NCBI GenBank assembly: GCA_964629965.1
Contig: CAZVRZ010000061.1
Coordinates: 1-31,465, forward strand
Length of the DNA: 31,465 bases
DNA from: an uncultured Anaerolineaceae bacterium
GTDB lineage: Bacteria > Chloroflexota > Anaerolineae > Anaerolineales > UBA4823
Reading direction: 5' to 3'
How positions within the stretch are numbered: position 1 is the stretch's first letter; each line of letters begins with the position of its first letter. The position numbers were made by a program, and so were the translations under genes. Under the pieces are notes generated by a model. It searched no databases. It was not told the origin of the DNA and saw nothing but the letters and a program-made list of their open reading frames with translations. Shown here piece by piece: positions 1 through 14,678 of the stretch.

Positions 1-66
1 TTCGGCTTCTTGGCTGGGTTGATTTTAATCTCTTCTACTGCTTCGAAATCCCTTTTTATCTGATAT

Positions 67-113
67 TTGACAAGCCGGCATTTCTTTGTTAAACTGTATT
101 TGTCAGACAAATA
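67..113 (+). promoter_or_regulatory. sigma70-like promoter (-35 TTGACA 67-72, 17-bp spacer, -10 TTAAAC/TAAACT 90-95) with an overlapping perfect palindrome TATTTGTCAGACAAATA (97-113), a candidate GntR/HutC-type operator
   Basis: Read directly from the sequence: TTGACA-N17-TAAACT, then an 8-1-8 perfect inverted repeat containing a GTC-N-GAC core typical of GntR-family operators. It lies ~65 bp upstream of the first gene of an operon that encodes a GntR regulator. A related half-site ATATTTGACAAG overlaps the -35. Confidence 0.45.
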
Positions 114-177
114 ACAAACAACTGCATTCCTTTCAGAAAAACATAACCAGGCAATTGAATAAATTTCTGAATATACG

Positions 178-1566
178 ATGACTACCCAATTAATCCATCA
201 CGCGCAGTGTTTGGTAACCATGGATTGCCATCGCCGGGAGATTCCCGACGGTGGCGTTTTTATCCGCGATGGCTTTATCGAGCAGGTTGGTGCGAGCCCT
301 GAGCTGCCTGGAGTTGCGGACGAGATCTTGGATCTGTCCGGGCACGTGGTTTTGCCGGGCCTGGTCAATACACACCATCACTTTTATCAAACACTTACCC
401 GGGCAGTGCCTGCCGCTCAAAACGCCAATCTTTTTAACTGGCTGAAAACCTTATACCCTATTTGGGCCAGGTTAAGACCGGAAGACATCTTCGTTTCTAC
501 GCAGATCGCCCTGGCAGAAATGGCGCTTTCTGGCTGCACCACGGCTTCTGACCATTTGTATATTTATCCCAACGGTTCTCGGCTGGATGATGAGATCGAA
601 GCAGGGCGCGCCATGGGAATGCGCCTGCATGCCTCGCGTGGTTCGATGAGCCTGGGCGAGAGCCAGGGCGGGCTGCCGCCAGACGCGGTGGTTGAGAGCG
701 AAGCATTCATTCTCAAAGATTCCCAGCGCTTGATCGAAACGTACCACGATCCAAACCCGGGCGCAATGACCCAGATCGTGTTGGCGCCGTGTTCGCCTTT
801 TAGTGTCACTGCGCAGTTAATGCGCGCCAGTGCTTCTCTGGCGCGCGAGTATGGCGTACATCTCCATACTCACCTGGCAGAGACGCAAGATGAAGAAGTA
901 TTTTGCGAACAGAAATTCGGTTACCGTCCGGCGGCCTACATGGATGTGTTGAATTGGACCGGCTGCGATGTGTGGTTTGCCCACTCGGTTTATGCGAATA
1001 AGGAAGAGATTGCCTTATATGCCAGGACGGGCTGCGGTGTGGCGCATTGCCCTGCTTCAAACATGCGCCTGGCTTCGGGGATCGCTCCAATCCAGGATAT
1101 GTTATTGGCAGGTGTGAAAGTGGGTTTGGGCGTGGATGGTTCAGCCAGCAACGATGGTTCTAACCTGTTGGAAGAGACTCGCCTGGCTATGTTGGTCGCC
1201 CGCCTGCGCTCCGGTTTGTCGGGTGCGTCCTTGTCTGGTTCGGATGCATCTGCCCTGATGACAGCCCGCCAGGCCCTGGAGATTGCCACGCTCGGGGGAG
1301 CGGCAGTCCTGGGCCGCCAGGATATCGGTTCGTTGGAACCTGGCAAATGTGCGGATCTGTGTGCATTTCGCCTGGATCAGATCGAATATGCCGGCGCCCT
1401 GCATGATCCTGTGGCGGCATTGGTCTTTTGTGCGCCTGCGCGGGCAGCCTATACGATGGTGGGGGGAAGGTTTGTTGTGCGAGAAGGGCAGATCACCACC
1501 ATCGATCTTCCGGTTATGATCGAGCGTCACAACCGGGCTGCCAGGAGATTGGTCGCCGGAGAGTAA
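178..1566 (+). CDS. Metal-dependent amidohydrolase, COG0402 family (SsnA / 8-oxoguanine deaminase / AtzB-like chlorohydrolase-like)
   Basis: 462-aa ORF. N-terminal HxH metal-binding motif (LVNTHHHFYQTL), later HTHLAE and a GVDGSASND Asp motif typical of cytosine/guanine-deaminase-type amidohydrolases. Sits in a nucleobase-catabolism gene context. Confidence 0.75.
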   Translation: MTTQLIHHAQCLVTMDCHRREIPDGGVFIRDGFIEQVGASPELPGVADEILDLSGHVVLPGLVNTHHHFYQTLTRAVPAAQNANLFNWLKTLYPIWARLRPEDIFVSTQIALAEMALSGCTTASDHLYIYPNGSRLDDEIEAGRAMGMRLHASRGSMSLGESQGGLPPDAVVESEAFILKDSQRLIETYHDPNPGAMTQIVLAPCSPFSVTAQLMRASASLAREYGVHLHTHLAETQDEEVFCEQKFGYRPAAYMDVLNWTGCDVWFAHSVYANKEEIALYARTGCGVAHCPASNMRLASGIAPIQDMLLAGVKVGLGVDGSASNDGSNLLEETRLAMLVARLRSGLSGASLSGSDASALMTARQALEIATLGGAAVLGRQDIGSLEPGKCADLCAFRLDQIEYAGALHDPVAALVFCAPARAAYTMVGGRFVVREGQITTIDLPVMIERHNRAARRLVAGE

Positions 1567-1601
1567 GCGTAGAGGCTGGAGATATAAGGAAGGATTGGAT
1601 A

Positions 1602-3404
1602 GTGGAGTTCCATGCGGTAAATTCCCTGGTAAACGTAGCTATGGGACGCGAGCCGGCTGATTTGGTGATCCGCAACGGTAAATGGGCTTGCGTACAATCT
1701 GGCGAAGTTGTCGCCCAGACCGATATTGCTATCAAGGATGGACGCGTTGCCCTGGTTGCCTCTGATGCGAGGTATACAGTGGGAGATAAAACCCGGGTGA
1801 TCCAGGCCGATGGCCGTTATCTGGTTCCCGGCTTGTTGGATGCCCACATGCATGTTGAGTCGGGTATGCTTACCATCACTGAGTTTGTGAGGGCAGTGAT
1901 CCCCCATGGAACTACGGGCATGTTCATCGATCCGCATGAGATTGCCAATGTGTTCGGTCTACAGGGTGTGCGCCTGATGGTTGATGAGGCTCGCCACCAA
2001 CCGATCCACGTATGGGTGCAGGCTCCTTCGTGCGTGCCGTCTGCGCCCGGATTGGAAACTCCGGGGGCAGAGATCCGTCCCGAGGATGTGGCCGAGGCGT
2101 TGAGTTGGCCGGGGATCATTGGCCTGGGCGAAGTGATGAATTTTCCAGGTGTGGCTGCTAACGAAGCCTGGCTGCACCAGGAACTGGCTGCAACGCGCAA
2201 GGCCGGCAAGGTGATTGGCGGGCATTATGCTTCGCCGGACCTGGGTCGCCCTTTTGCCGGTTATGTGGCCGGCGGTGCCCAGGACGATCACGAAGGCACT
2301 CGCCTCGAAGATGCCGTTGCCCGCATTCGCCAGGGCATGAAGGTGATGATGCGCTTTGGCTCTGCCTGGCATGATGTGGCCGAGCAGGTGCGGGCCGTGA
2401 CAGAATTGGGCCTGGATCCCAGGCATTTCTTATTATGCACCGACGATTCGCATTCGTACACGTTGGTCAAAGAAGGTCATGTCAACCGTGCGCTGCGCGT
2501 GGCGATTGAGAGCGGTGTACCGCCGATGACTGCCCTGCAAATGGCTACTTTGAATACGGCTGAACATTTCCATGTCGACGGAGATATAGGCCAGATTGCC
2601 CCCGGGCGCTTTGCGGATATTCTGATCATGTCTGAATTGCCGGGAGTGGCGGCCAACCCGCCGGAGATGGTCATTGCAAAAGGAACCGTGATTGCCAAAT
2701 CTGGAAGGGTTTTGGTGGATCTGCAGACTTTTACTTATCCAGATTGGGTGCGGCAGTCTGTGCGGTTGGCTCGAGAAGTCAATACCGGCGATTTCCGCCT
2801 GGCAGTGAGCGGCGACCAGGCGCAGGTCTCTGCCAACGTGATCGGGATCATTGAAAACCAGGCTCCCAACCAGCGCCTGAGATATACTTTACCGGTGATG
2901 GAGGGGGAGGTGCAGGCAGATCTGCGCCAGGACATTGCTAAGATCGCTTTGCTTGACAGGCATCGGGGCGCCGGTGTGGTGCAGGTTGGCCTGGTGCACG
3001 GCTTCGGTTTCACGGTTCCATGCGCGGTTGGAACCACCGTGGCTCACGATTGCCACCAGATGGTAATCGTAGGGACGGATGACGGCTGCATGGCGATGGC
3101 TGCCAATGAGCTAAAACGCATTGGGGGCGGCCAGGTTGTGGTGAAAGAAGGCGAAGTGATTGGCAAGATCGAACTTCCCATCGCGGGGTTGATGTCTTCT
3201 GGCCGCGCCGAAGAAGTGGCCCGCCAGGCAGCTACCATCCTGGATGGATTCCGGCTGTGTGGCTGCTCATTGAATAACCCCAACATGCAGCTTAGTTTGA
3301 GTGCTTTACCGGTCATCCCTGACCTGCGCATCACAGACTTGGGTTTGGTGGATGTAAACCGGTTCTCATTGATCCCTGTAATAGAAAGTGAAAACATACC
3401 ATGA
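1602..3404 (+). CDS. Adenine deaminase family amidohydrolase (COG1001, Ade-like)
   Basis: ORF frame is open from 1428, but the likely start is GTG 1602, preceded by AGGAAGG (1586-1592). Translation has ADLVIRNGKW...DIAIKDGRV, then LLDAHMHVESGM (the HxH...E metal site of adenine deaminase) and a long C-terminal domain (~600 aa total), as in Ade. Substrate specificity is not provable from sequence. Confidence 0.7.
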   Translation: MEFHAVNSLVNVAMGREPADLVIRNGKWACVQSGEVVAQTDIAIKDGRVALVASDARYTVGDKTRVIQADGRYLVPGLLDAHMHVESGMLTITEFVRAVIPHGTTGMFIDPHEIANVFGLQGVRLMVDEARHQPIHVWVQAPSCVPSAPGLETPGAEIRPEDVAEALSWPGIIGLGEVMNFPGVAANEAWLHQELAATRKAGKVIGGHYASPDLGRPFAGYVAGGAQDDHEGTRLEDAVARIRQGMKVMMRFGSAWHDVAEQVRAVTELGLDPRHFLLCTDDSHSYTLVKEGHVNRALRVAIESGVPPMTALQMATLNTAEHFHVDGDIGQIAPGRFADILIMSELPGVAANPPEMVIAKGTVIAKSGRVLVDLQTFTYPDWVRQSVRLAREVNTGDFRLAVSGDQAQVSANVIGIIENQAPNQRLRYTLPVMEGEVQADLRQDIAKIALLDRHRGAGVVQVGLVHGFGFTVPCAVGTTVAHDCHQMVIVGTDDGCMAMAANELKRIGGGQVVVKEGEVIGKIELPIAGLMSSGRAEEVARQAATILDGFRLCGCSLNNPNMQLSLSALPVIPDLRITDLGLVDVNRFSLIPVIESENIP

Positions 3405-4138
3405 CAACGGCAAAAACACCCATCGCGTATAAGCTTTATGAAAATTTACGGCGTATGATCGCAGGACTGGAAACAGGCCAACGATTACCATCTGAGCCAG
3501 AACTGGCGCGCAAGTTAGGAGTTTCCCGGGCCACGCTGCGGGAGGCCATGCGCACATTTGAAACGCAAGGCGTGATCTACCGGCGCCAGGGCTCGGGGAC
3601 ATTTGTCTCGCGGCCGCCCCAGGTGATCCAGAGCGGCCTGGAGATGCTGGAAAGCATCGAGAGGTTGGCAGAACGGATTGGATTGCCGGTTTCCTTGGGA
3701 GAGAATATGGTCTCGCCGGACAATGCCAGCGAGGATGATGCTTTGGCTTTGGGCTGCCAGCCTGGCGATAAAGTGCTGCGGGTGTCGCGGGTCATCCTGG
3801 CGGAAGGGCATCCGGCGGCATACTTGATCGATGTTTTGCCCGGAGACGTTTTGGCTCCTGCCGAGTTGGAGAAGGGTTACAAAGGTTCGGTTTTAGATAT
3901 TATCCTGAAGCGCGGCTCGCCGGTATTGAGCTCCTCACGCTGCGAGATCAAAGCAACAACCGCCTCGCCGGACATTGCTCGGGCGATGGGAATCCAGCGC
4001 GGCGATGTGTTGCTGTGCTTTGTGGCATACCTGTACACCATTGAGGGGCGCGTGGTAGATTACTCTTACAGCTATTTCTTGCCGGGACATTTTCGTTTTC
4101 ATGTTGTCCGGCGAATTGAAACCGGCTATTCCGGTTGA
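3401..4138 (+). CDS. GntR family transcriptional regulator, HutC subfamily (wHTH + UTRA effector domain)
   Basis: N-terminal winged-HTH signature (RLPSEPELARKLGVSRATLREAMRTFETQGVIYRRQGSGTFV), ~245 aa with a C-terminal UTRA-like domain. Its ATG overlaps the stop of the upstream gene (ATGA coupling). Confidence 0.8.
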   Translation: MTTAKTPIAYKLYENLRRMIAGLETGQRLPSEPELARKLGVSRATLREAMRTFETQGVIYRRQGSGTFVSRPPQVIQSGLEMLESIERLAERIGLPVSLGENMVSPDNASEDDALALGCQPGDKVLRVSRVILAEGHPAAYLIDVLPGDVLAPAELEKGYKGSVLDIILKRGSPVLSSSRCEIKATTASPDIARAMGIQRGDVLLCFVAYLYTIEGRVVDYSYSYFLPGHFRFHVVRRIETGYSG

Positions 4139-4169
4139 TTGGTGAAGTGTTTGATGACTGAGTGGATTC

Positions 4170-4200
4170 CAGGGATTAATGATCCCTGTTCTCTAATTTC
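4170..4200 (+). terminator. Hairpin CAGGGAT-TAATG-ATCCCTG followed by a T-rich tract (TTCTCTAATTTC): possible intrinsic terminator or attenuator between the regulator gene and the carbamoyltransferase genes
   Basis: Perfect 7-bp stem with a 5-nt loop read from the sequence. The T-tract is imperfect and the stem short, so termination strength is uncertain. Confidence 0.35.
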
Positions 4201-4235
4201 AAAATCATGTAGTTTCAAACTTGGAGGATCAATTT

Positions 4236-5186
4236 ATGCGTAGTTTTATGGGACGTGATATTCTGTCGTTGAAAGAATTTGGTAGAGAAGATTACTATCG
4301 GGTGTTCGAAGTGGCAGACGACCTGGCGCCGATCGCCCGCAACCGCCGGAACAGCGACTTGTTGAAAGATAAGACCCTGGTTACCGCTTTTTATCAGCCC
4401 AGCACCCGCACCCGCCTGGCGCACGAGGCTGCCATGCATCGTTTGGGAGGGCATGTGCTGGGCTTTTCGGATGCCAAGATGACGCGCGCCGGCGATTTTT
4501 ACCAGGAATCGATCAAAGATACGGTGCGTATGTTGGAATTCTATGGCGATGTCTTGGTGATGCGCCATTTTCAGCAAGGAGCGCCCCATGAAGCGGCGCG
4601 TTGGTGCAGTATCCCGGTGATCAATGCCGGCGACGGTTGGGGAGAGCATCCCACCCAGGTACTGACGGATATGTACACAATCCTCAATGAGAAGGGCGGG
4701 CTGGATGGACTGAATTTCTTGTTGATTGGTGATATGCGCATGCGCACCATGCATAGTATCTCTTATGCCATGACCCAATTTGATATTAATGCGTTTTATG
4801 TGGCTCCTCCCGATATGCGCCTGACGGATGACTTCAAGCAGGAGCTCCGCTCGCTGAACCTGAATTTCAAGGAAATCGAGCATGTCGAAGAGGCCATTGC
4901 CGAGGCAGACGTCATCTATATGGAACCGGTGGTGCAGCCCGATTACACCAAATCCCGCGATGAGCGCACAGGGTCAGAAGGCCAGACTCCCGCGAATTAC
5001 AAGGTTACGAAAGAACTGCTGCGAAAAGCACGCCAGGATGCCATTGTGCTGCATTCACTGCCGCGCATGGACGAGCTGCCTGCGGAAGTAGATGACACCC
5101 GCCACCAGCGTTACTGGATCGAGGCGTTTAACGGCGTTGTGGTCCGCATGGCTTTATTGGCTCTGGTCTTAGGGGCGGTTGAGTGA
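4236..5186 (+). CDS. Carbamoyltransferase, aspartate-carbamoyltransferase-like (PyrB-like paralog; substrate uncertain)
   Basis: Start is ATG 4236 with GGAGGA 6 nt upstream. The ORF track's 4221 is an in-frame upstream TTG. STRTR carbamoyl-phosphate motif, HPTQ motif and a C-terminal HSLPR (ATCase-type HxLP) motif. N-terminus DILSLKEFGREDYYRVFEVADDL resembles PyrB. Confidence 0.8.
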   Translation: MRSFMGRDILSLKEFGREDYYRVFEVADDLAPIARNRRNSDLLKDKTLVTAFYQPSTRTRLAHEAAMHRLGGHVLGFSDAKMTRAGDFYQESIKDTVRMLEFYGDVLVMRHFQQGAPHEAARWCSIPVINAGDGWGEHPTQVLTDMYTILNEKGGLDGLNFLLIGDMRMRTMHSISYAMTQFDINAFYVAPPDMRLTDDFKQELRSLNLNFKEIEHVEEAIAEADVIYMEPVVQPDYTKSRDERTGSEGQTPANYKVTKELLRKARQDAIVLHSLPRMDELPAEVDDTRHQRYWIEAFNGVVVRMALLALVLGAVE

Positions 5187-5218
5187 GATGCTCACTATAG
5201 TTTTTCAAGGAGAAAACG

Positions 5219-6208
5219 ATGCAAACAGACCTTCGTAATCGAGATTTGATCGGCGACCTTGACTTTTCGAAAGAAGAAGTTGAAACGGTTTTGGAGGTGG
5301 CCTTTGACCTGAAGCGCAAGCGGGCCTTGGGCGAACCGCATGCTTATTTACGCGACAAGGTGCTGGCGATGTTGTTCTTCTTTAGCAGCACCCGCACGCG
5401 CGGCTCGTTCGAAGCGGGCATGGCGCAATTGGGCGGGCACGCGGCCTTTATCGAAAGCAAAACTACTCAGATTGCACATGGCGACACGCCGAAGGAAATC
5501 GGCGAGATCTTTGGACGGTATTACGATGGTATTGCCATCCGCCACTGCGATTGGGGCGTGGGCAATGGCTACCTGAACGCGGTTGCCAGGGCGGCACGGG
5601 TGCCGGTGCTCAATATGCAATGTGATATCTATCACCCTTTCCAATGCCTGGCTGACTTGATGACGATCATTGAGAAGAAGGGCCGCGATTTGCGGCGGAA
5701 AAAGATGGTTGTATCGTGGGCGTATGCGGCCTCGTACCAGAAGCCCATGTCGGTGCCGCAGAGCCTGATCCTGCAAATGCCGCGCTTTGGTCTGGATGTA
5801 GTGTTGGCGCACCCGCTCGAATTCCGCCTAATGCCTGACATTATGGACCAGGCCCGCGAGCAAGCGCGCAAGTACGGTACGGGCTTTGAAGTGATCTCGG
5901 ATCCGGATGGTATGGAAAAAGCTTTTAAGGATGCCGATATCGTTTATGCCAAGTCCTGGGGCGCGATGGTACATACGCCCGACTCGGATGAAGGCGCCAG
6001 GATCATCAAGAAATATGAAAGCTGGATCACAGATGAGCGCAAAATGGCCGCGGCGAAAACAGATGCTATTTACATGCACCCGCTGCCGGCGGATCGCAAC
6101 ATTGAAGTAACCGATGCAGTGATCGACGGGCCTCATTCTGTGGTCTATGATGAAGCTGAGAATCGTATGCACGCTCAAAAAGCTGTCATGGCTTTGACCA
6201 TGCGCTAA
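5219..6208 (+). CDS. Carbamoyltransferase, OTCase-like fold with atypical motifs (HPFQ, HPLP instead of HCLP); unknown specificity
   Basis: AAGGAG sits 8 nt upstream of ATG 5219. SSTRTRGSFE carbamoyl-phosphate motif, HPFQCLADL and C-terminal MHPLPADR. The N-terminal DLIGDLDFSKEEVETVLEVAFDLKRKRA resembles OTC/PTC-type enzymes, but the second-substrate motif is non-canonical. Confidence 0.8.
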   Translation: MQTDLRNRDLIGDLDFSKEEVETVLEVAFDLKRKRALGEPHAYLRDKVLAMLFFFSSTRTRGSFEAGMAQLGGHAAFIESKTTQIAHGDTPKEIGEIFGRYYDGIAIRHCDWGVGNGYLNAVARAARVPVLNMQCDIYHPFQCLADLMTIIEKKGRDLRRKKMVVSWAYAASYQKPMSVPQSLILQMPRFGLDVVLAHPLEFRLMPDIMDQAREQARKYGTGFEVISDPDGMEKAFKDADIVYAKSWGAMVHTPDSDEGARIIKKYESWITDERKMAAAKTDAIYMHPLPADRNIEVTDAVIDGPHSVVYDEAENRMHAQKAVMALTMR

Positions 6209-6219
6209 AGGAGTGAAAT

Positions 6220-7185
6220 ATGTCCGAACAGGCGCGTAAATTTGCGGTAGTGGCTATCGGTGGCAATTCTTTGATCAAGGATAAGCAGCACCAGACGGTG
6301 GAAGATCAATACACGGCTTCTAAAGAAACCACATTTTACATCGCGGATATGATCGAAGCCGGCTGGGATGTTGCTGTCACCCATGGGAATGGCCCACAGG
6401 TGGGTTTTATCCTGCGGCGATCAGAGATTGCTTACCGGGTAGAGGGGATGCACGAAATCCCCCTGGATGTTTGCGGTGCGGACAGCCAGGGAGCGATTGG
6501 TTATGCCTTGCAACAAACCCTGCAGAACGAGCTTTACCGGCGGGGCATCAAGAAAAATGTGGCGACGGTCATAACCCAGGTATTGGTAGATCGAGATGAT
6601 CCGGCATTTAAGAACCCCACCAAACCGATCGGCGGCTTTATGGACCAGGCCGAGGCGCAGCGCCGTGCCAAGGAAATGGATTGGGCGGTCGTTGAAGACG
6701 CCGGCCGCGGCTGGCGGCGTGTGGTGGCCTCTCCGCAGCCCAAAGAAGTCGTTGAGCTGGATACGGTGAAAGCTTTGCTGCAGAGCGGCGTGGTGGCAAT
6801 TGCCGCCGGCGGTGGGGGCATCCCGGTCATTGACGTCGGCGAGGGCGAGTATCGTGGCACGGCTGCGGTGATCGATAAAGACTTTGCCAGTTCCCTGCTG
6901 GCCCAGGCGATCAGAGCCGATCTTTTCCTCATCTCCACTGCGGTGGAGAAGGTGGCGATCCATTTTGGATCGCCACAGCAGCAGTGGTTGGATCGAATCA
7001 CACTGGCGCAAGCTAAGCAGTACCTGGCAGAGGGCATCCATTTTGCCAAGGGTTCCATGGCGCCGAAGATCGAAGCGATCATCTGGTTCTTGGAAGCAGG
7101 TGGAAAGCAAGCCTTGATCACCAATCCCCCCAACATCAGCAAAGCATTGCGCGGCGAGACGGGTACCTGGATCGTTAATGAGTAG
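6220..7185 (+). CDS. arcC: Carbamate kinase
   Basis: AAGGAG RBS. VVAIGGNSL N-terminal motif and THGNGPQVG motif characteristic of carbamate kinase (amino-acid kinase family). 321 aa. Confidence 0.85.
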   Translation: MSEQARKFAVVAIGGNSLIKDKQHQTVEDQYTASKETTFYIADMIEAGWDVAVTHGNGPQVGFILRRSEIAYRVEGMHEIPLDVCGADSQGAIGYALQQTLQNELYRRGIKKNVATVITQVLVDRDDPAFKNPTKPIGGFMDQAEAQRRAKEMDWAVVEDAGRGWRRVVASPQPKEVVELDTVKALLQSGVVAIAAGGGGIPVIDVGEGEYRGTAAVIDKDFASSLLAQAIRADLFLISTAVEKVAIHFGSPQQQWLDRITLAQAKQYLAEGIHFAKGSMAPKIEAIIWFLEAGGKQALITNPPNISKALRGETGTWIVNE

Positions 7186-7242
7186 AGGTAATTATTTTAT
7201 AAGTAGTATAGACAATCTCGTCCGAAGGGTGTATCCTTGTAC

Positions 7243-7373
7243 ATTGTGCATGGTAGATGCTGTGTGATTGGCCGAAAATTATTTAACTAAATAGATGCGT
7301 AAAATCGGCCAATCACTTGAGCAAACCGCTATGTTGGCTGTAAAGTTGTTCAAAAACATTTAGCGATTTGCTA
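7243..7373. repeat. Copy 1 of a ~125-bp structured repeat: two tandem hairpins (GTGATTGGCCGA-29nt-TCGGCCAATCAC; AGCAAACCGCTA-30nt-TAGCGATTTGCT)
   Basis: ~92% identical to 24016-24143. The perfect 12-bp inverted repeat was read directly. Located in the 340-bp intergenic region upstream of the BMP/ABC transporter operon. Confidence 0.8.
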
Positions 7374-7524
7374 ACATGTATGGAGCGCTATAGAGAGGCT
7401 CTGCCCCGGAGGCGTTTTCACGAAAGGAGGTGCCCTCAACCTGTTTGCCGTTTTGCATTGATGGAGAATGCTAGAAATGTCTGGTTTGAATCGACCAATT
7501 TAGATCATCTTGATGGAGGAGTAA

Positions 7525-8715
7525 ATGCGTACCAAAATATTGACAGTGCTGCTAATTCTGGCGATTGCCCTTTCGGGCTGCAGCCAAAAGCCCGAGGAAG
7601 TGGGCGGTTTTCAGATCCCGAATGTGGAAAAAGGCAAATTCAACGTTGGCATGGTTCTGATCGGCCCCCATGATGATGGCGGTTGGTCTCAGTCCCACTA
7701 TGAGGGACTCGAGTATGTTGCCAAGAATGTGCCGAACGTACATGTGGCGTATATCGAGAATGTGCCCGAAGGCGCTGACTCGGAGCAGGTTTTCCGCGCT
7801 CTCTCGCGGAAAGGTTTTGACCTGATCATTGGTACATCTTTCGGTTTTGGCGACCCGATGGAAATCGTGGCTGGTGAATTCCCGAAGAGCATGTATGTCC
7901 ACATTAGCGGCATCAAGTCCAATTCAACCAACTTCGGCAACCTGTTCGGCGCCATGGAAGTGATGAAGTATGCGGCTGGGATGCTGGCCGGGGCGCGCGC
8001 TAAGATGGATGGCAACCCCAAGCTGGGTTATATGGCGACCTTCCCCATTCCGGAGGAACTGCGCCTTGGGAATGCCATTGCCCTGGGTATGAAGAAGACC
8101 TGCCCGGAGTGCACCATGGATGTGCGCTGGATCAGTACCTGGCATGATCCCGTGATTGAAAAAGAAGCGGCTGCTTCCCTCTTCGATGCCGGTGCTCAGG
8201 TGGTTTTCACCGGCGCAGATACCCCGGCGGTTGCCGATGTGGCTCAGGAAAAGGGTAAATGGGGCGTGACCTATGACTGGTATGGTTCCTGCAAGGTGGA
8301 TCGCTGCTTGACCGTTCCTTATTGGAATTGGGGCCCGATCTATGCCAAGATCACCGAACAGGTGGCTGCGGGCACCTATAAGCCAGGTTGGGATTATTTC
8401 GATGCGGAAACAGGCGCACTGGGCCTCTACGGCTTTATGGAAGGCCAGTCGCTGCCCATGGGCGTCAAGGAATTACCCGCTGAGGTTGTGGATGAAGTGC
8501 GCTCTATCATTGACAAATCTCTCAAGGGCCAATTCACGCGCTTCGATGTGTTTACCGGCCCGATCATGGATAATCAGGGCAATACCATTGTGCCTGCTGG
8601 CTCGAAGATGGACCAGGCTGACCTGGATCAATTCCCGGAATATGGTTTGGGTTGTAAGTACTGCATGAAGTGGTGGGCAGAAGGCATTACTGCTGAACTG
8701 CCAAAGACCGATTAG
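7525..8715 (+). CDS. BMP family (PnrA/Med-like) ABC transporter substrate-binding lipoprotein, likely a purine-nucleoside-binding protein
   Basis: Lipoprotein signal MRTKILTVLLILAIALSGCSQ (lipobox LSGC). GGAGGAG RBS. ~396 aa periplasmic binding-protein fold with BMP-family hallmarks. Followed by a duplicated-ATPase ABC protein and two permeases, the classic nucleoside-uptake arrangement. Confidence 0.75.
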   Translation: MRTKILTVLLILAIALSGCSQKPEEVGGFQIPNVEKGKFNVGMVLIGPHDDGGWSQSHYEGLEYVAKNVPNVHVAYIENVPEGADSEQVFRALSRKGFDLIIGTSFGFGDPMEIVAGEFPKSMYVHISGIKSNSTNFGNLFGAMEVMKYAAGMLAGARAKMDGNPKLGYMATFPIPEELRLGNAIALGMKKTCPECTMDVRWISTWHDPVIEKEAAASLFDAGAQVVFTGADTPAVADVAQEKGKWGVTYDWYGSCKVDRCLTVPYWNWGPIYAKITEQVAAGTYKPGWDYFDAETGALGLYGFMEGQSLPMGVKELPAEVVDEVRSIIDKSLKGQFTRFDVFTGPIMDNQGNTIVPAGSKMDQADLDQFPEYGLGCKYCMKWWAEGITAELPKTD

Positions 8716-8732
8716 TCAATCCAGTTGAGTAC

Positions 8733-8779
8733 GGTCAGGGTCCGGTTGGCTGCGCAAGCACCCAATCCGGATCCTGACC
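8733..8779 (+). other. Imperfect 13-bp-stem hairpin (GGTCAGGGTCCGG ... CCGGATCCTGACC) between the binding-protein gene and the ABC ATPase gene: possible intra-operon attenuator or mRNA-stabilising stem
   Basis: Inverted repeat with one mismatch and a 21-nt loop, read from the sequence. A weak T-tract follows. Confidence 0.3.
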
Positions 8780-8798
8780 TTGTCTCCGAATATTAGCG

Positions 8799-10439
8799 AT
8801 GGAACAAATCATAGACGGATCAAATCCCCACGACGGTTTAAAATCCCGCGAATCAAGTGAGAGCCAGGAGCTGCCCACGCAAACGCTGGTGGTGGAGATG
8901 CGCGGCGTTATCAAGCGTTTTCCGGGCGTGCTGGCTAATGATCGCGTCGATTTTGAACTGCGCCGGGGTGAAATCCATGCCCTGCTGGGAGAAAACGGCG
9001 CCGGCAAAAGCACGTTGATGAATATCCTGGCGGGTCTCTATCAGGCAGAAGCCGGCAAGATCCTGGTTAAAGGAAAACTGGTCACGTTCCATTCGCCTCG
9101 CGATGCGATCGAGGCCGGGGTGGGGATGGTGCACCAGCATTTTATGCTGGTGCCATCACAATCGGTGACGGAAAATATCTTGCTAGGGTTGAAAGAACCG
9201 CGCTTCCGGCTGCGCCTGGCAGATTATGATCGCCAGATCAATGAGATGGGAGAACACTTTGGGCTGCGTGTAGATGCGCAGGCCAAGGTGTGGCAGCTTT
9301 CTGTTGGCGAGCAGCAGCGGGTGGAATTGTTAAAAATGCTTTACCGGGGGGCAGATATCTTGATCATGGATGAGCCCACCGCCGTGCTGGCTCCTCAGGA
9401 AATCGAGGGTTTGTTTGATACGCTGCGCTCCATGACAGCCGAAGGAAAGTCGGTGATCTTTATCAGCCACAAACTGCATGAAGTGATGGCGATTGCAGAC
9501 CGGGTGACCGTTCTGCGCAAAGGACGGGTGACCGCCGCAGGCGTCAAAACAGCCGATACCAGTCTGCAGGAATTGGCGCGCTTGATGGTTGGACGCGAGG
9601 TTTTGTTCCACATCGAAAGGAAACCTCAGCAGGCGGGAAACGTGGTGCTTTCGATCGACCATGTGCATGCTGAGAATGATAAAGGCCTGGAGGCGCTGAA
9701 GGGGATTTCCCTGGACGTTCACAGCGGCGAGATCGTGGGCCTGGCGGGCGTGGCGGGCAACGGGCAGCGAGAGCTGGCCCAGGTGATCACCGGGCTGCGC
9801 CGCTGCACTCAAGGCAAGATCATGATGAATGATAAAAATATCACCAACCGTTCGGTGGAATACAACATCCGCCAGGGGATTGGTTATGTGCCGGAAGATC
9901 GCACCCAGGTGGGGTCGTCTCCGAATTTGAGTATCACCGATAATGTTATTATGAAACGTTTTCGCCAGTCGCCCATTGCGCGCGGCTGGATGTTGGATAT
10001 GATGCAGGCTGCCCAGTTTGCCTCTGGTTTGCAGAAGGATTATGCCATTGTGGTTCCTTCAGTAGAAACGCCGGTGCGCTTGCTTTCTGGCGGCAACTTA
10101 CAGCGCGTGATCCTGGCGCGTGAGATTTCCGGTGAGCCGGCTGTGATGGTGGCTGTGCAGCCCACTCGAGGCCTGGACGTGGGGGCAATCGAGGGTGTGC
10201 AGCGCTTGCTGCTGCAGCAGCGCGAGGCAGGCGCAGCGATCCTGCTCATGTCTGAAGAATTGGAAGAATTAATCGCTTTGAGCGACCGCATCTGCGTGAT
10301 CTACGAAGGCCGGATCATGGGCGAAATCCGCCAGGGAGCTTTGGACGAAAAGACAGAAATCGAAACGATCGGTTTGATGATGTGCGGCACCCAGCTTGCT
10401 GATATTGACCCGAGTACGGGTGGCCCGAGTACGGGCTAG
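8799..10439 (+). CDS. ABC transporter ATP-binding protein with two fused ATPase domains (nucleoside/sugar type)
   Basis: Walker A GENGAGKST, signature LSVGEQQRVELLK, Walker B ILIMDEPT, a second P-loop GVAGNGQRELAQ and a second signature LSGGNLQRVILARE. The start is uncertain because there is no clear RBS. Confidence 0.8.
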   Translation: MEQIIDGSNPHDGLKSRESSESQELPTQTLVVEMRGVIKRFPGVLANDRVDFELRRGEIHALLGENGAGKSTLMNILAGLYQAEAGKILVKGKLVTFHSPRDAIEAGVGMVHQHFMLVPSQSVTENILLGLKEPRFRLRLADYDRQINEMGEHFGLRVDAQAKVWQLSVGEQQRVELLKMLYRGADILIMDEPTAVLAPQEIEGLFDTLRSMTAEGKSVIFISHKLHEVMAIADRVTVLRKGRVTAAGVKTADTSLQELARLMVGREVLFHIERKPQQAGNVVLSIDHVHAENDKGLEALKGISLDVHSGEIVGLAGVAGNGQRELAQVITGLRRCTQGKIMMNDKNITNRSVEYNIRQGIGYVPEDRTQVGSSPNLSITDNVIMKRFRQSPIARGWMLDMMQAAQFASGLQKDYAIVVPSVETPVRLLSGGNLQRVILAREISGEPAVMVAVQPTRGLDVGAIEGVQRLLLQQREAGAAILLMSEELEELIALSDRICVIYEGRIMGEIRQGALDEKTEIETIGLMMCGTQLADIDPSTGGPSTG

Positions 10440-10460
10440 ACTTACAGAGGGAAGACATGC

Positions 10461-11612
10461 ATGAGCAATCGTGAAGAAGGGCGTGTGCGGTTCAAGTCAC
10501 CGCGGTTCAAACCACCGCTGCGGATCTATTTTGAACCCCGCTTACAGGAACCGCCGAAATGGTATCCGTTGGTGGTGTCGTTAGGCGCAATTGTCTTCGC
10601 CTTATTATTGGGCGCGATTGTGATCGCCTTTGCTGGTGGCGATCCGTGGCGTTCCTATGCTCACATTGCCCAGGCTTCTTTCGGCAGCCTGGGGGTTTTT
10701 TCAGACACCCTGGTGAAGGCTACTCCCCTGATCCTGGTGGGCCTGGCCTGTTCGCTGGCTTTCCGGATGCGCTTGTGGAATATTGGCGCGGAGGGACAAT
10801 TTTTCTTGGGGGCGTTTGGAGCCAGTGCCGTGGTCTTGCTGCCCATTTTGCCGGCAGAGACCTCGCGGTGGATCTTCATCCCGGTGATGATGGTGGTGGG
10901 CACGCTGGCTGGGGCTTTGTGGGGCTTTGTGCCAGGCTTTTTGAAAGCGCGTTTTAATGTCAACGAAGTGATCACCACGTTGATGATGAACTATATTGCT
11001 GTGGCGTGGAACAACTACTTTATTTTCGCCGTGTGGAGCGAAGGCGGTTTTCAAATGAGCCATGTCTTTCCAAAAACGGCCTGGCTGCCGCGCCTGACAG
11101 ACTACGCCAGGCAGGTTCCCTGGCTGTCTGGTTTGACCACCCACCTGGGCTTGATCTTTGGCTTGATGGCGGCGATTGTGGTCTGGCTGATCTTATATCG
11201 TTCTCGCCTGGGGTATGAGATCCGCTTGATCGGCGATAATCCCAAGGCTGCCCGGTATGCGGGTTTGTCTATTACGCGCAATACCGTGCTGGTGATGATG
11301 ATTTCCGGTGGGCTGGCAGGATTGGCAGGCATGTCTGAGATCACGGGGGTGGTGCATCGCTTACAAGGTGCCATTTCGCCGGGATACGGGTTCACCGGTA
11401 TTATTGTGGCCTGGCTTGCTAAGCTCAATCCATTCGTCGTCATCGTTGTTTCGATCTTGTTCGGTGCTCTGATCCTGGCAGGGCGAGAGATCCAGCCATC
11501 CGGCATTCCCAAGATGATCCAAGGGATCATCCTGGTATCTTTGATTGCCAGTGATTTTTTCTTGCGCTATCGTGTGCGCATTGTTCGAGTTGAAGAGCGC
11601 GAGGAGGCCTGA
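10461..11612 (+). CDS. ABC transporter permease (BMP/nucleoside uptake system)
   Basis: 383 aa, multiple hydrophobic helices. Follows the ATPase. GAGGGAAG RBS. Confidence 0.75.
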   Translation: MSNREEGRVRFKSPRFKPPLRIYFEPRLQEPPKWYPLVVSLGAIVFALLLGAIVIAFAGGDPWRSYAHIAQASFGSLGVFSDTLVKATPLILVGLACSLAFRMRLWNIGAEGQFFLGAFGASAVVLLPILPAETSRWIFIPVMMVVGTLAGALWGFVPGFLKARFNVNEVITTLMMNYIAVAWNNYFIFAVWSEGGFQMSHVFPKTAWLPRLTDYARQVPWLSGLTTHLGLIFGLMAAIVVWLILYRSRLGYEIRLIGDNPKAARYAGLSITRNTVLVMMISGGLAGLAGMSEITGVVHRLQGAISPGYGFTGIIVAWLAKLNPFVVIVVSILFGALILAGREIQPSGIPKMIQGIILVSLIASDFFLRYRVRIVRVEEREEA

Positions 11613-11615
11613 TCC

Positions 11616-12584
11616 ATGGATCCGATCATCATACTTCAGGCAGGGGTTGGCACGGGTACGGTGCTCTTGTTTGCCACCCTGGGTGGAATATTCTCGGAAC
11701 GGTCGGGCGTGATGAACCTGGGGATGGAGGGGATGATGCTGATGGGCGCCATGACCGGTTACAGCGTTGCGCTGGCAACACATAATCCCTGGTTGGGTGT
11801 GATCGCGGCGATGCTGGCGGCAGGATTGATCAGCCAGGTGCATGCCTTCATCAGTATTACTCTTCAGGCCGATCAGGTGGTGAGTGGGCTGGCGCTGACT
11901 TTTCTCGGTGCGGGCATGAGCCTGGTGTTGGGCGAAGGCTTGAGCAAGGCGGGAACCGTTTCGCTGCTGCCCAACTTCTCAATCCCTCTATTGCAATCTA
12001 TCCCCTTGCTGGGCCCGATCTTTTTCAAAGATCAGAGTGTAATGGTCTACCTGGGCTACCTGCTGGTACCGTTATCCTGGTATTACATCAATCACACCCG
12101 GCCCGGCTTGCACTTGCGTGCGGTGGGGGAGCATCCTGCAGCAGCCGATTCGCAGGGCATTAACGTTTACCGGCTGCGTTACCTGTATGTATTCGTGGGC
12201 GGCGCCCTGGCCGGCGTGGCTGGCGCCACCATTAGCCTGGCGGTAGCTCCCGGCTGGTTCAGTGAGTTGACCACTGCCGGGCAAGGCTGGATTGCAGTGG
12301 GCCTGGTCATCTTTGCCCAGTGGGACCCTTTCCGGGCTGCTTTTGGCTCTTATACTTTCGGCGCGCTGCGCCGGCTGATCCTGGATATCCAGGGACCCAT
12401 GACGCTGCTGGGTTTTCGCAATCCTTTTTATTACAATCCTTATTGGGGTTTTTTCCTGCAGATGCTGCCCTATGCGTTCACGGTGATCGTTTTGGTGCTG
12501 GTCTCTCGAGAGGCCATGCGGAAGAGGCTGGGCGCCCCGGCAGCTCTGGGCGTCCCCTATATTCGCGGTGAGCGAGGTATGTAG
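11616..12584 (+). CDS. ABC transporter permease (second permease of the BMP system)
   Basis: GAGGAGG RBS. 322-aa polytopic membrane protein. Paired with the preceding permease. Confidence 0.75.
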   Translation: MDPIIILQAGVGTGTVLLFATLGGIFSERSGVMNLGMEGMMLMGAMTGYSVALATHNPWLGVIAAMLAAGLISQVHAFISITLQADQVVSGLALTFLGAGMSLVLGEGLSKAGTVSLLPNFSIPLLQSIPLLGPIFFKDQSVMVYLGYLLVPLSWYYINHTRPGLHLRAVGEHPAAADSQGINVYRLRYLYVFVGGALAGVAGATISLAVAPGWFSELTTAGQGWIAVGLVIFAQWDPFRAAFGSYTFGALRRLILDIQGPMTLLGFRNPFYYNPYWGFFLQMLPYAFTVIVLVLVSREAMRKRLGAPAALGVPYIRGERGM

Positions 12585-12588
12585 CTTT

Positions 12589-13419
12589 ATGGCGCGTTTC
12601 CGGTTGGTAACGCTCAATCTTTCTGTTGACCTGACCTATTGGAGCCAGCGCAAAGAGCTTTTGCGGGAGGGGTTGGCCGAATTAAAGGCGGACGTGATCG
12701 CCCTGCAAGAAGTAAAACTGCCGGAAAACCCCGCTCAATGGCTGGCGGATGCGTTGGCCGAAACCGGCCTGATTTACCAGGTGCACCTGTGTCCTAAGTC
12801 GGGCGAGAAATCGCGACAAGAGGCAATTGCTATTCTGAGCCGGCTGCCGGTTGAGCGGCATGCGATGCTTGACCTGCGGACGCAAAATCGCGTGGCGCAG
12901 TCTGTGCGGGTCGGTTTGGCTGAGGGAAAGTTTGTGACGATCGTTAACGGGCATTTTTATTGGCAGCCAGGCGAGTCTCCTGAGCGTTCCCAACAACTGC
13001 AGCGTTTGCTGGTTTGGTTGGGAACCCTGCCGATGAAAGCGCCATTGGTGGTGTGCGGCGATTTCAATGGATTGCCGGAAACCACCGCAATCCAGTTAAT
13101 GCGCCGTTATTTTAATTCTGCTTATGCCAAGGTGCACGGCCGCGAGCCTGAATATACCTACCCAACGCCTCTGCCGCGTTCCTGGAAGGCCAACGCGATG
13201 GCGTTTTACCAATACCTGCGCCTGTTTCAGCGGTTTCCCGGAACGCAGCAGTCTCAGTCGCACTCCTGGCAGGGCACGCTGGATTATATTTTTGTCAGCC
13301 AGATGCTTGGAGTGAAAGATTGCCAGGTGGTGTTGAACCGGCCTTCCAGTGAAAATGCGCTGATCTATCCAGCGGGTCACTTTGGCCTGATGGCTGATTT
13401 GGAATTGGCTGCTTTATGA
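12589..13419 (+). CDS. Endonuclease/exonuclease/phosphatase (EEP) family protein
   Basis: N-terminal motif VTLNLSVDL...ADVIALQEV (catalytic Glu of the EEP fold) and C-terminal ...DYIFVS...H motifs. The ORF is open from 12568, and the first ATG is 12589. Confidence 0.6.
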   Translation: MARFRLVTLNLSVDLTYWSQRKELLREGLAELKADVIALQEVKLPENPAQWLADALAETGLIYQVHLCPKSGEKSRQEAIAILSRLPVERHAMLDLRTQNRVAQSVRVGLAEGKFVTIVNGHFYWQPGESPERSQQLQRLLVWLGTLPMKAPLVVCGDFNGLPETTAIQLMRRYFNSAYAKVHGREPEYTYPTPLPRSWKANAMAFYQYLRLFQRFPGTQQSQSHSWQGTLDYIFVSQMLGVKDCQVVLNRPSSENALIYPAGHFGLMADLELAAL

Positions 13420-14678
13420 AAGAAAAATTTTTAGGATACCGTTGTTCGTTGTGTCAAAAAGAATACGCTGCGGGTGAGGTCACCTATGTTTGTCCGGCTG
13501 ATGGGGGTAATTTGGACGTGGTGTACGATTATACCGCCCTCAGCAAATCAACTTTCCTGCAAGATACCGCTCAGGATTCCCTGTGGAGTTACCTGCCGCT
13601 GCTGCCGGTGGCGGACCCGGGCGGGTGGGGCACGCCGCTGCGGGCGGCAGGCGGCACACCGGTGTATGCCGTCGAACGCCTGGCGGCTCGCCTGGGACTG
13701 CGATCCCTGTGGGTCAAGGATGAAAGCCGCAACCCCACCGCTTCGTTCAAAGATCGTGCCAGCGCGGTGGTGGTGGCGCGGGCGCTTCAGGTGGGCGCCG
13801 AAGTGGTGGTCACTGCTTCGACCGGCAACGCTGGCGCGGCTCTGGCAGGCATGGCGGCTGCAGTTGGGCAGCGTGCTGTGATCTTTGCCCCGCGCACGGC
13901 GCCCCCGGCCAAGGTGGCGCAACTGCTGGTCTTTGGCGCTCGAGTGATCCTGGTGGATGGCAGCTACGACCAGGCTTTTGACCTGACCATCCAGGCGGCG
14001 CAGGAATTTGGCTGGTACTGCCGCAATACGGGCTACAACCCGTTCACCGTGGAGGGGAAGAAAACCGCGGCGTTGGAAATATGGCATTGGCAGCAGCAAA
14101 ACCAGCAGAACTTGCCGGCCGGCCGGCGCCTAAACATTTTCGTATCCGTTGGGGATGGCAATATCATCTCTGGCGTGCACAAGGGCTTTAAAGATCTGCT
14201 GGCCCTGGGCTGGCTGGATGCCATGCCGCGCCTTTTCGGCGTGCAGGCCGAAGGCTCGGCGGCGGTGGCCAATGCTTTCCGGGCAGGCGTGGAGACGATC
14301 ACGCCGGTGGCGGCGAACACCCTGGCCGACAGCATCTCGGTCGACCTGCCGCGAGATGGCGTGCGGGCGGTGCGGGCGGCCCGCGAGACGGGCGGCGCTT
14401 ACCTGGTGGTCAAAGATGAGGATATCTTGCGGGCTATCGGCGAGCTAGGTGGGGTGGGCATCTTTGCCGAGCCCGCCGGGGCCGCCTCATATGCCGGCGT
14501 GGCCGAAGCGCTGCGCCAGGGGCTGATCGAACCGGACGAGCCGGTGTTGGCGATCAATACGGGCAGCGGTTTGAAAGACGTGCGCGCCGCGATGCAGGCT
14601 GTGCAGCCCGCACCGGTGATCGAACCGGATATGAAAGCCCTGCAGAAGCTGCTTGGGACAACTCACCGATCAATTTGA
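13416..14678 (+). CDS. thrC: Threonine synthase-like PLP enzyme with an N-terminal zinc ribbon
   Basis: CxxC...CP zinc-ribbon (YRCSLCQKEY...YVCPADGG) and the PLP-lysine motif NPTASFKDRAS matching the threonine synthase NPTGSFKDRG signature. ATGA start/stop overlap with the upstream gene. Confidence 0.6.
   Translation: MKEKFLGYRCSLCQKEYAAGEVTYVCPADGGNLDVVYDYTALSKSTFLQDTAQDSLWSYLPLLPVADPGGWGTPLRAAGGTPVYAVERLAARLGLRSLWVKDESRNPTASFKDRASAVVVARALQVGAEVVVTASTGNAGAALAGMAAAVGQRAVIFAPRTAPPAKVAQLLVFGARVILVDGSYDQAFDLTIQAAQEFGWYCRNTGYNPFTVEGKKTAALEIWHWQQQNQQNLPAGRRLNIFVSVGDGNIISGVHKGFKDLLALGWLDAMPRLFGVQAEGSAAVANAFRAGVETITPVAANTLADSISVDLPRDGVRAVRAARETGGAYLVVKDEDILRAIGELGGVGIFAEPAGAASYAGVAEALRQGLIEPDEPVLAINTGSGLKDVRAAMQAVQPAPVIEPDMKALQKLLGTTHRSI

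Follow-up and report, generated by a model that had tools for sequence, protein, structure and literature searches.

What is the role of an operon in which two purine-type amidohydrolase genes stand ahead of two carbamoyltransferase genes and a carbamate kinase gene? The question is raised by contig CAZVRZ010000061.1 from an uncultured Anaerolineaceae bacterium of the phylum Chloroflexota (assembly GCA_964629965.1); the whole stretch analyzed here, 31,465 nt in length, is referred to as the window. Six genes, all on the + strand, are designated A to F. They encode an 8-oxoguanine deaminase family protein (A), an adenine deaminase family protein (B), a GntR/HutC-subfamily regulator (C), two carbamoyltransferases (D and E), and a carbamate kinase (F), and are followed by the genes G to J for an ATP-binding cassette (ABC) importer of the Bmp family. 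The operon is widespread in Anaerolineae and appears to be a variant of the anaerobic urate pathway that was described recently. With moderate confidence, the window can be assigned the modules for entry into and exit from anaerobic purine fermentation, in an operon that is typical of Anaerolineae and in which A and B are optional feeders. A, B, and C had been recognized in a preliminary description, and all three are present on the + strand as described there, with corrections to start sites and coordinates. Individually these three are ordinary; the less ordinary part of the operon is the unassigned carbamoyltransferase pair D/E. The layout itself, which combines deaminases, two orphan carbamoyltransferases, a carbamate kinase, and a predicted purine-base importer, is new, and the literature searched contained no earlier account of such an operon from Anaerolineae.

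Conservation of the Operon in Anaerolineae

The D protein was used as a query against 185,579 species genomes, which yielded more than 590 species-level relatives with at least 75% identity. The best 80 loci were examined; their D proteins show 75–89% identity to the query, and nearly all originate from Anaerolineae, including the cultured Thermanaerothrix solaris 4228-RoL (locus L048). Anaerolinea thermophila is another cultured carrier. Gene order ahead of D was counted in the 62 loci with sufficient upstream DNA, each representing a GTDB species. A-B-C is present upstream of D in 32 of the 62. The other combinations are A and C (6 loci), B and C (5), A and B (2), A only (3), C only (4), and none of the three (10), and C is found upstream of D in 47 loci altogether. 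These combinations indicate that D-E-F is the core, that C is the usual partner, and that A and B are separable add-ons. The order A-B-C-D-E-F followed by the Bmp-type ABC importer was also observed on three long metagenomic contigs containing close B homologues (68–71% identity). The link of A-B-C to the carbamoyltransferase/carbamate kinase module, which had been drawn from the window, is thus real and recurrent. With 32 of 62 loci and the excess of operator sequences at the promoter of A described below, the A-B-C arrangement is beyond chance.

A FolD gene is located immediately upstream of A in 30 of the 80 loci (for example, at positions 4998–5882 in locus L012), with the operator and the promoter in between. 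The window begins just downstream of the position equivalent to FolD. The presence of FolD beside A may reflect one-carbon handling or merely conserved gene order.

Association with the Reductive Uric-Acid Pathway

The reductive uric-acid pathway, which proceeds through 2,8-dioxopurine ("yanthine"), was worked out in 2025 in Escherichia coli, Clostridium sporogenes, and Clostridioides difficile, and in the SsnA clusters of Chloroflexota an F420-dependent luciferase-like reductase replaces YgfK (PMC12507026). At least one hallmark gene of the pathway (YgeY, SsnA, HyuA, selenium-type Xdh, or F420 reductase) is present near D-E-F, within 10 kb of D, in 16 of the 80 loci. The full set of Xdh, reductase, SsnA, HyuA, and YgeY lies beside D-E-F in one of them, L038, and subsets are seen in the other 15. 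At positions 1–20954, L038 encodes an XdhD-like protein with an FAD subunit, an F420-dependent luciferase-like (LLM) reductase, YgeY, D, E, the carbamate kinase, SsnA, a second Xdh, and HyuA. The YgeY of this locus scores 438 bits (cutoff 321.5), the HyuA-type D-hydantoinase 543 bits (cutoff 393), and SsnA 439.5 bits (cutoff 444). In L057 (76–8110), D-E-F is followed by a selenium-type xanthine dehydrogenase (992 bits, cutoff 830), SsnA, and an LLM reductase. In L079 (3640–20949), L055, and L084, the genes A, B, C, D-E-F, the ABC importer, and Xdh subunits are encoded on one strand, and YgeY is additionally present in L079 and L084. The analogy to the ssnA/ygeW/yqeA locus of E. coli, offered in the preliminary description, therefore points to the right pathway, since loci related to the window carry its hallmark genes (PMC12507026). 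It is from this adjacency of D-E-F to the hallmark genes that A and B are best read as feeder deaminases.

As gene clusters in their own right, L038, L057, and L079 represent complete or near-complete Anaerolineae reductive urate clusters arranged around D-E-F.

The urate clusters of E. coli, C. sporogenes, and C. difficile (XdhD/YgfM, YgfK, SsnA, HyuA, YgeW, YgeY, YgeX, and YqeA) follow the same terminal logic, in which a ureido compound yields carbamoyl phosphate and then ATP through a carbamoyltransferase and carbamate kinase. There are several differences. Two tandem carbamoyltransferases, neither of them YgeW, occupy the place where E. coli has a single YgeW. The Anaerolineae loci use the F420-dependent LLM reductase instead of YgfK/UacX, and they contain no YgeX orthologue, while two other pyridoxal 5′-phosphate (PLP) enzymes recur. 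The Anaerolineae operon also incorporates purine deaminases, a HutC-type regulator, and a Bmp-type ABC importer, whereas the upper half of the pathway is absent from the window. As for other routes of purine breakdown, no genes supporting the Rabinowitz xanthinase pathway or the allantoin/oxamate route were found in the window or in the related loci.

Carbamoyltransferases and Carbamate Kinase

The gene for D is positioned at 4236–5186, that for E at 5219–6208, and that for F at 6220–7185. F passes both carbamate kinase models, TIGR00746 (374 bits, cutoff 358) and NF009007 (427 bits, cutoff 266). D and E share 28% identity, and their best structural matches are the aspartate carbamoyltransferase (ATCase) and the ornithine carbamoyltransferase (OTCase) of Pyrococcus, respectively.

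In D, the motifs STRTR, HPTQ, and RTMHS of the carbamoyl-phosphate site and the motif HSLPR are invariant. The aspartate-binding R229-x-Q231 and the HP[LG]P motif of ATCases are not found: EPVVQPDY occupies the position of TRxQKER, HSLP that of HPLP, and both replacements are invariant in 74 homologues. D nominally passes TIGR00670 (256 bits, cutoff 237) and fails NF002032 (236 bits, cutoff 263). Its score against YgeW is only 36 bits, where the cutoff is 453.

D matches the class of pseudo-ATCases, which Barba et al. (2013) divided into three groups (PMC4016543 Table 1). The characterized member, in group 1, the ureidoglycine carbamoyltransferase Rxyl_2847, has HPLA and acts on allantoate, while group 2 genes adjoin a YgeW-like gene, xdhABC, and hyuA (PMC4016543). 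D retains STRT and HPTQ, has HSLP for HP[LG]P, and lacks RxQ, as do groups 2 and 3. None of the three groups has the EPVVQPDY motif or the Anaerolineae context of D.

E scores below every NCBIfam cutoff: 246 bits against 281 for OTCase, 242 against 288 for acetylornithine carbamoyltransferase, and 186 against 453 for YgeW. It falls between OTCase and acetylornithine carbamoyltransferase, and has KSWG and HPLP instead of SMG and HCLP. The exact sequence of E was looked up in public contigs and had no match there.

Housekeeping ATCase and OTCase identities of D and E were rejected on the substrate-site motifs together with the catabolic neighbours. The arginine or agmatine deiminase pathway was rejected likewise: no deiminase is encoded in the window, and E falls under the cutoffs of both the OTCase and the putrescine carbamoyltransferase models. 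It is the gene context that suggests a pathway-ending role of D and E in the reductive uric-acid route.

Deaminases A and B

A (178–1566, 462 aa) is a COG0402 protein with an Amidohydro_1 domain, of the mononuclear-zinc type. It scores 690.6 bits against the equivalog NF006055, "8-oxoguanine deaminase" (cutoff 532), and aligns end to end with PDB 3HPA (611 bits) and with VCZ, PDB 7WW2 (546 bits). In VCZ, an isocytosine/8-oxoguanine deaminase, His68, His70, His234, and Asp322 are the zinc ligands, Glu237 and His271 are catalytic, and Gln73, Tyr130, Ser326, Trp90, Leu91, Phe88, and Phe210 contact the base (PMC10481359). All 13 of these residues are identical in A, and among 44 Anaerolineae homologues the motifs that contain them do not vary. 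Since the equivalog score is high and every active-site residue is kept, A clearly belongs to the family of 8-oxoguanine/guanine/isocytosine deaminases, and as judged from its sequence it is an orthologue of these enzymes, presumably with substrates of the same kind. A has the same zinc ligands, catalytic Glu, His, and Asp, and purine contacts as Pa0142, the Sargasso Sea protein 3HPA, and VCZ 7WW2. It differs from them in genomic setting: in this anaerobic lineage of Chloroflexota, the gene stands first in an operon that includes carbamoyltransferase and carbamate kinase genes.

A had also been described as SsnA-like, and this label has to be withdrawn. A fails both SsnA models by a wide margin (130.8 bits for NF005540, cutoff 444; 127.6 bits for TIGR03314, cutoff 455.5), and it is only 29% identical to the genuine Anaerolineae SsnA that lies beside D-E-F in L038. 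SsnA identity of A is ruled out by these scores and this identity.

For B, the mechanical open reading frame starts at TTG 1428 and overlaps A. The credible start is GTG 1602, 7 nt after the ribosome-binding site AAGGAAGGA, which gives a gene at 1602–3404 and a protein of 600 aa; an independent gene call on a public contig shares the equivalent start, and B homologues are 595–606 aa long. The protein is a binuclear-metal amidohydrolase composed of Amidohydro_1 and Adenine_deam_C (PF13382, 185 bits). It passes the adenine deaminase model TIGR01178 marginally, at 488.9 bits, 16 bits above the cutoff of 472.5. The match to the Agrobacterium adenine deaminase Atu4426 (PDB 3NQB) reaches 253 bits over residues 10–543, and in this alignment HxH, DPHE, the bridging Glu, two His, the Asp, and the C-terminal HD..H are all present in B. 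These metal-ligand motifs are invariant or nearly so in 47 homologues. B therefore has the two-domain architecture and the binuclear and third-site metal-ligand motifs of adenine deaminase Ade. It differs from Ade in failing the enterobacterial-type model (340 bits, cutoff 768), and its match to 3NQB, the sole full-length solved homologue, is modest.

The classification of B as an adenine deaminase family enzyme thus stands, with TIGR01178 passed and the metal ligands all present, and adenine deamination is the default reading of its predicted activity. Specificity determinants of this family are poorly defined. Because B passes just one of the two adenine deaminase models, and narrowly, it may act on a different aminopurine; positive evidence for the atypical specificity suggested earlier was not found, the metal-ligand motifs being invariant in 47 homologues. 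Both proteins are purine-type amidohydrolases as proposed, and the comparison of active sites found their catalytic and metal-binding residues complete. Pseudo-enzyme status of A or B is ruled out by the invariance of all catalytic motifs.

Regulator, Promoter, and Operator

C (3401–4138, 245 aa) consists of a GntR winged helix (PF00392, 62 bits) and a UTRA effector domain (PF07702, 77 bits), which places it in the HutC subfamily. A and B are separated by 35 nt, and B and C overlap by the ATGA at 3401–3404. The short gaps and the overlap noted in the preliminary description are confirmed, and the spacing is consistent with co-transcription of A, B, and C, although it does not amount to the proof of co-transcription that had been claimed from it. 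C and D are 97 nt apart, with D starting at ATG 4236 after GGAGGA and not at TTG 4221.

A sigma-70-type promoter is found at 68–95 on the + strand: TTGACA, a 17-nt spacer, and TAAACT with a TG extension. It agrees with the consensus at 10 of 12 positions and is the best promoter in 1–7600. The palindrome TATTTGTC-A-GACAAATA lies directly downstream at 98–114, and its core TTGTCAGACAA, at 100–110, abuts the -10 box. A palindrome had been reported here at 97–113; the element is genuine, and its position is corrected by one base. In 81 sequences, comprising 1.32 Mb of related loci and the window, 56 exact copies of the core TTGTCNGACAA were counted where base composition predicts 0.93, an approximately 60-fold excess. 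Fifty-two of the 56 sites are located 30–144 nt upstream of A (48 sites) or, in loci without A, of B (4 sites). Ten loci have two sites 40–50 nt apart, of which the upstream one overlaps the -35 hexamer. The window retains the downstream site alone, and the sequence around its -35 hexamer is degenerate.

The presence of a UTRA-domain GntR regulator, together with a conserved operator at the palindrome recognized earlier, is supported by both the domain scores and the excess of sites. An operator just downstream of the -10 box is in the position expected of an autorepressor that would block initiation. From its predicted binding to the palindrome behind the single strong promoter ahead of A, C would govern its own operon; it is probably an autorepressor responding to a small effector. 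In winged-helix plus UTRA architecture C resembles the catabolic repressors of the HutC/GntR group (HutC, PhnF, and the NagR/DasR type), and as with these, its predicted operator is a short palindrome with A/T flanks that overlaps the promoter of its own operon. C differs in scoring below the cutoffs of all the named HutC-subfamily equivalogs.

Proposed Function and Alternatives

In the proposed scheme, purine bases would be imported by G-J. A would remove the 2-amino group, converting 8-oxoguanine to urate or guanine to xanthine, and B would remove the 6-amino group of adenine to yield hypoxanthine, both with release of ammonia. The oxopurines would then enter a molybdenum-hydroxylase and reductive ring-opening route (Xdh, F420-type reductase, SsnA, HyuA, and YgeY), the genes for which are absent from the window and adjoin D-E-F in related genomes. 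The context of D-E-F suggests that 2,3-diureidopropionate and mono-ureido products would be phosphorolysed by D and E, and that F would use the carbamoyl phosphate to form ATP. C would bind the TTGTCAGACAA palindrome, and be released presumably when a purine or a pathway intermediate binds to its UTRA domain. The substrates, the order of the steps, and the regulation are what we infer from the observed family memberships, intact active sites, synteny, and operator conservation.

Several points weigh against this reading. No Xdh, reductase, SsnA, HyuA, or YgeY gene is present in the window. With every redox and ring-opening gene missing from it, the window is not a complete route, and the "complete" sequence of sensing, deamination, ring opening, decarbamoylation, and ATP formation announced in the preliminary description is not borne out; as far as the window is concerned, the pathway may be incomplete in the source organism. 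Most of the 80 related loci are also without hallmark genes within 10 kb of D. D and E are, by sequence, not orthologues of YgeW, and their substrates are predicted from context. B passes one adenine deaminase model alone, narrowly, and fails the E. coli-type model NF007457 (340 bits, as given above). To our knowledge, the physiological substrate in the 8-oxoguanine deaminase family has been defined solely through in vitro screening. The independent variation of A and B relative to D-E-F fits feeders, and fits a looser association equally well. The relatives all belong to one class, so part of the shared gene order may be inheritance and not function; the synteny within Anaerolineae extends to FolD and to an unrelated GT2 gene.

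A stronger version of the scheme is possible, although doubtful: the operon would support a fermentation of higher yield, in which D and E harvest both ureido groups, to give up to two ATP per purine instead of one, from imported bases that include the oxidative lesion base 8-oxoguanine and are deaminated by A and B, with a single HutC-type repressor in control that senses a purine intermediate. The occurrence of two carbamoyltransferases beside one kinase suggests, speculatively, that carbamoyl phosphate could be formed from both ureido groups of diureidopropionate; some loci also retain the hydrolase YgeY alongside the two carbamoyltransferases.

Among competing explanations, the one that survives best is that A and B serve purine salvage or nitrogen scavenging, while D-E-F acts on an unrelated ureido compound, such as a citrulline-like amino acid, and the shared promoter reflects a general nitrogen or energy economy or inherited gene order. 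This would account for the occurrence of A and B independently of D-E-F, for the absence of upper-pathway genes from the window, and for the synteny of GT2 and FolD genes in the same class, and Bmp transporters are classic salvage importers. In Thermoflexus, another member of Chloroflexota, an "OTCase" gene adjoins a carbamate kinase gene, and the pair was read by the authors as belonging to an arginine deiminase pathway (PMC8129789). In the same study, of the compounds in the medium, only adenine and adenosine were taken up, which is circumstantial evidence for the purine-fermentation reading (PMC8129789). Such a division of roles is nevertheless unlikely. D is without the RxQ of ATCase, E is without the SMG and HCLP of OTCase and below all cutoffs, and the window contains neither an arginine nor an agmatine deiminase. 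Moreover, D-E-F repeatedly abuts YgeY, SsnA, HyuA, Xdh, and F420 reductase genes in rearranged contexts, and a single conserved operator and promoter stand ahead of the entire A-to-F block.

A further explanation retains the pathway and changes the roles of the amidohydrolases: A and/or B would hydrolyse pathway intermediates, for instance by taking over from SsnA or HyuA the opening of a reduced purine or hydantoin ring, or would deaminate an uncommon aminopurine (for example, 8-oxoadenine, isoguanine, or N6-methyladenine). Most loci with A-B-C have no SsnA or HyuA nearby, few members of the Ade family have been characterized, and the narrow pass of B against TIGR01178, with failure against the E. 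coli-type model, leaves room for another substrate. Ring opening by A or B had been part of the preliminary description; nothing points to it. A has all the substrate-contacting residues of the crystallographically defined isocytosine/8-oxoguanine deaminases and is only 29% identical to true SsnA, and the deaminase metal-ligand motifs of B are all invariant. L079 and L084 hold A and B together with YgeY and Xdh. SsnA lies beside D-E-F in L038 and L057, as does HyuA in L038, which indicates that the canonical ring-opening enzymes are used in this lineage. Altered roles of this kind are therefore quite improbable.

An anabolic D-E-F unit, in which carbamate kinase would act as a carbamoyl-phosphate synthase feeding ATCase and OTCase, as proposed for Pyrococcus, and the deaminases would supply ammonia, has in its favor the structural matches of D and E to the Pyrococcus enzymes and the bifunctional carbamate kinase suggested for Thermoflexus (PMC8129789), but it was rejected as very improbable, the aspartate-binding RxQ being replaced by the invariant EPVVQPDY in D, the ornithine-site SMG and HCLP being absent from E, and the neighbours (YgeY, SsnA, HyuA, Xdh, and a HutC-type regulator) being catabolic.

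Purine fermentation thus remains the preferred function of the operon. Little is known about the energy sources of Anaerolineae, which count among the most abundant uncultured fermenters in soils, sediments, and digesters. Should the operon convert purines to ATP, Anaerolineae would have a significant substrate in the nucleobases of necromass. Two orphan carbamoyltransferase families would acquire functions, and the reductive urate pathway described in 2025 would extend beyond gut bacteria. The value of the otherwise ordinary A, B, and C lies in the clue that they provide, tying the orphan carbamoyltransferase/carbamate kinase module to purines, and in a regulator-operator pair that can be tested.

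Importer and Neighboring Features

The genes G to J (7525–12584, + strand) encode the binding protein, the ATPase, and two permeases of the Bmp-family ABC importer. The structures nearest to the binding protein G (7525–8715) are the guanine-bound AtzT 6PI5 (168 bits) and 3S99, in which adenine was modelled (134 bits); the nucleoside binder TmpC scores 37 bits. Compared with the ligand data for AtzT-type binding proteins (PMC6834077), G shares with AtzT an aromatic sandwich, a Ser-Phe pair, and a Glu in the binding site, while Asn218 and Asn220 of AtzT are replaced by Gly and Asp. Because of these two substitutions, the base specificity of G may differ from that of AtzT. G is placed in the guanine/adenine-binding branch, and its nearest solved structures suggest import of purine bases. 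An importer of the base type fits the absence of any nucleosidase gene from the operon region.

The spacer between F and the importer genes (7186–7524) is unusually long, at 339 nt, and neither an Rfam family nor the operator sequence is found in it. It may contain a second promoter. In the spacer between C and D (4139–4235), an 8-bp hairpin is formed by CAGGGAUU and AAUCCCUG with a 3-nt loop, followed by a weakly U-rich tract. Shuffled sequence folds just as well (z = -0.56), so the hairpin may act as a weak attenuator or have no role. Across 1–8900, which includes the leader and the spacers, Rfam gave no match at E ≤ 1. On this result and on the insignificance of the C-D hairpin, structured RNA such as a riboswitch was rejected for the leader and the spacers.

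A gene of the endonuclease/exonuclease/phosphatase family (12568–13419) is inserted between the last permease gene and a gene for a ThrC-like protein, overlapping both. It was found in none of the 80 related loci, and thus seems to be a lineage-specific insertion.

The ThrC-like protein (13416–14678) is a PLP enzyme, and its gene recurs beside D-E-F in differently arranged loci. Another PLP enzyme, encoded at 16988–18451 (487 aa), is a distant relative of cysteine synthase with a best PDB match of about 60 bits. Its gene likewise adjoins D-E-F in rearranged loci: L056, where the order is D-E-F-N with N as this gene, L066 to L068, L078, L083, L039, and L029. Either of these two enzymes could be a stand-in for the diaminopropionate ammonia-lyase YgeX.

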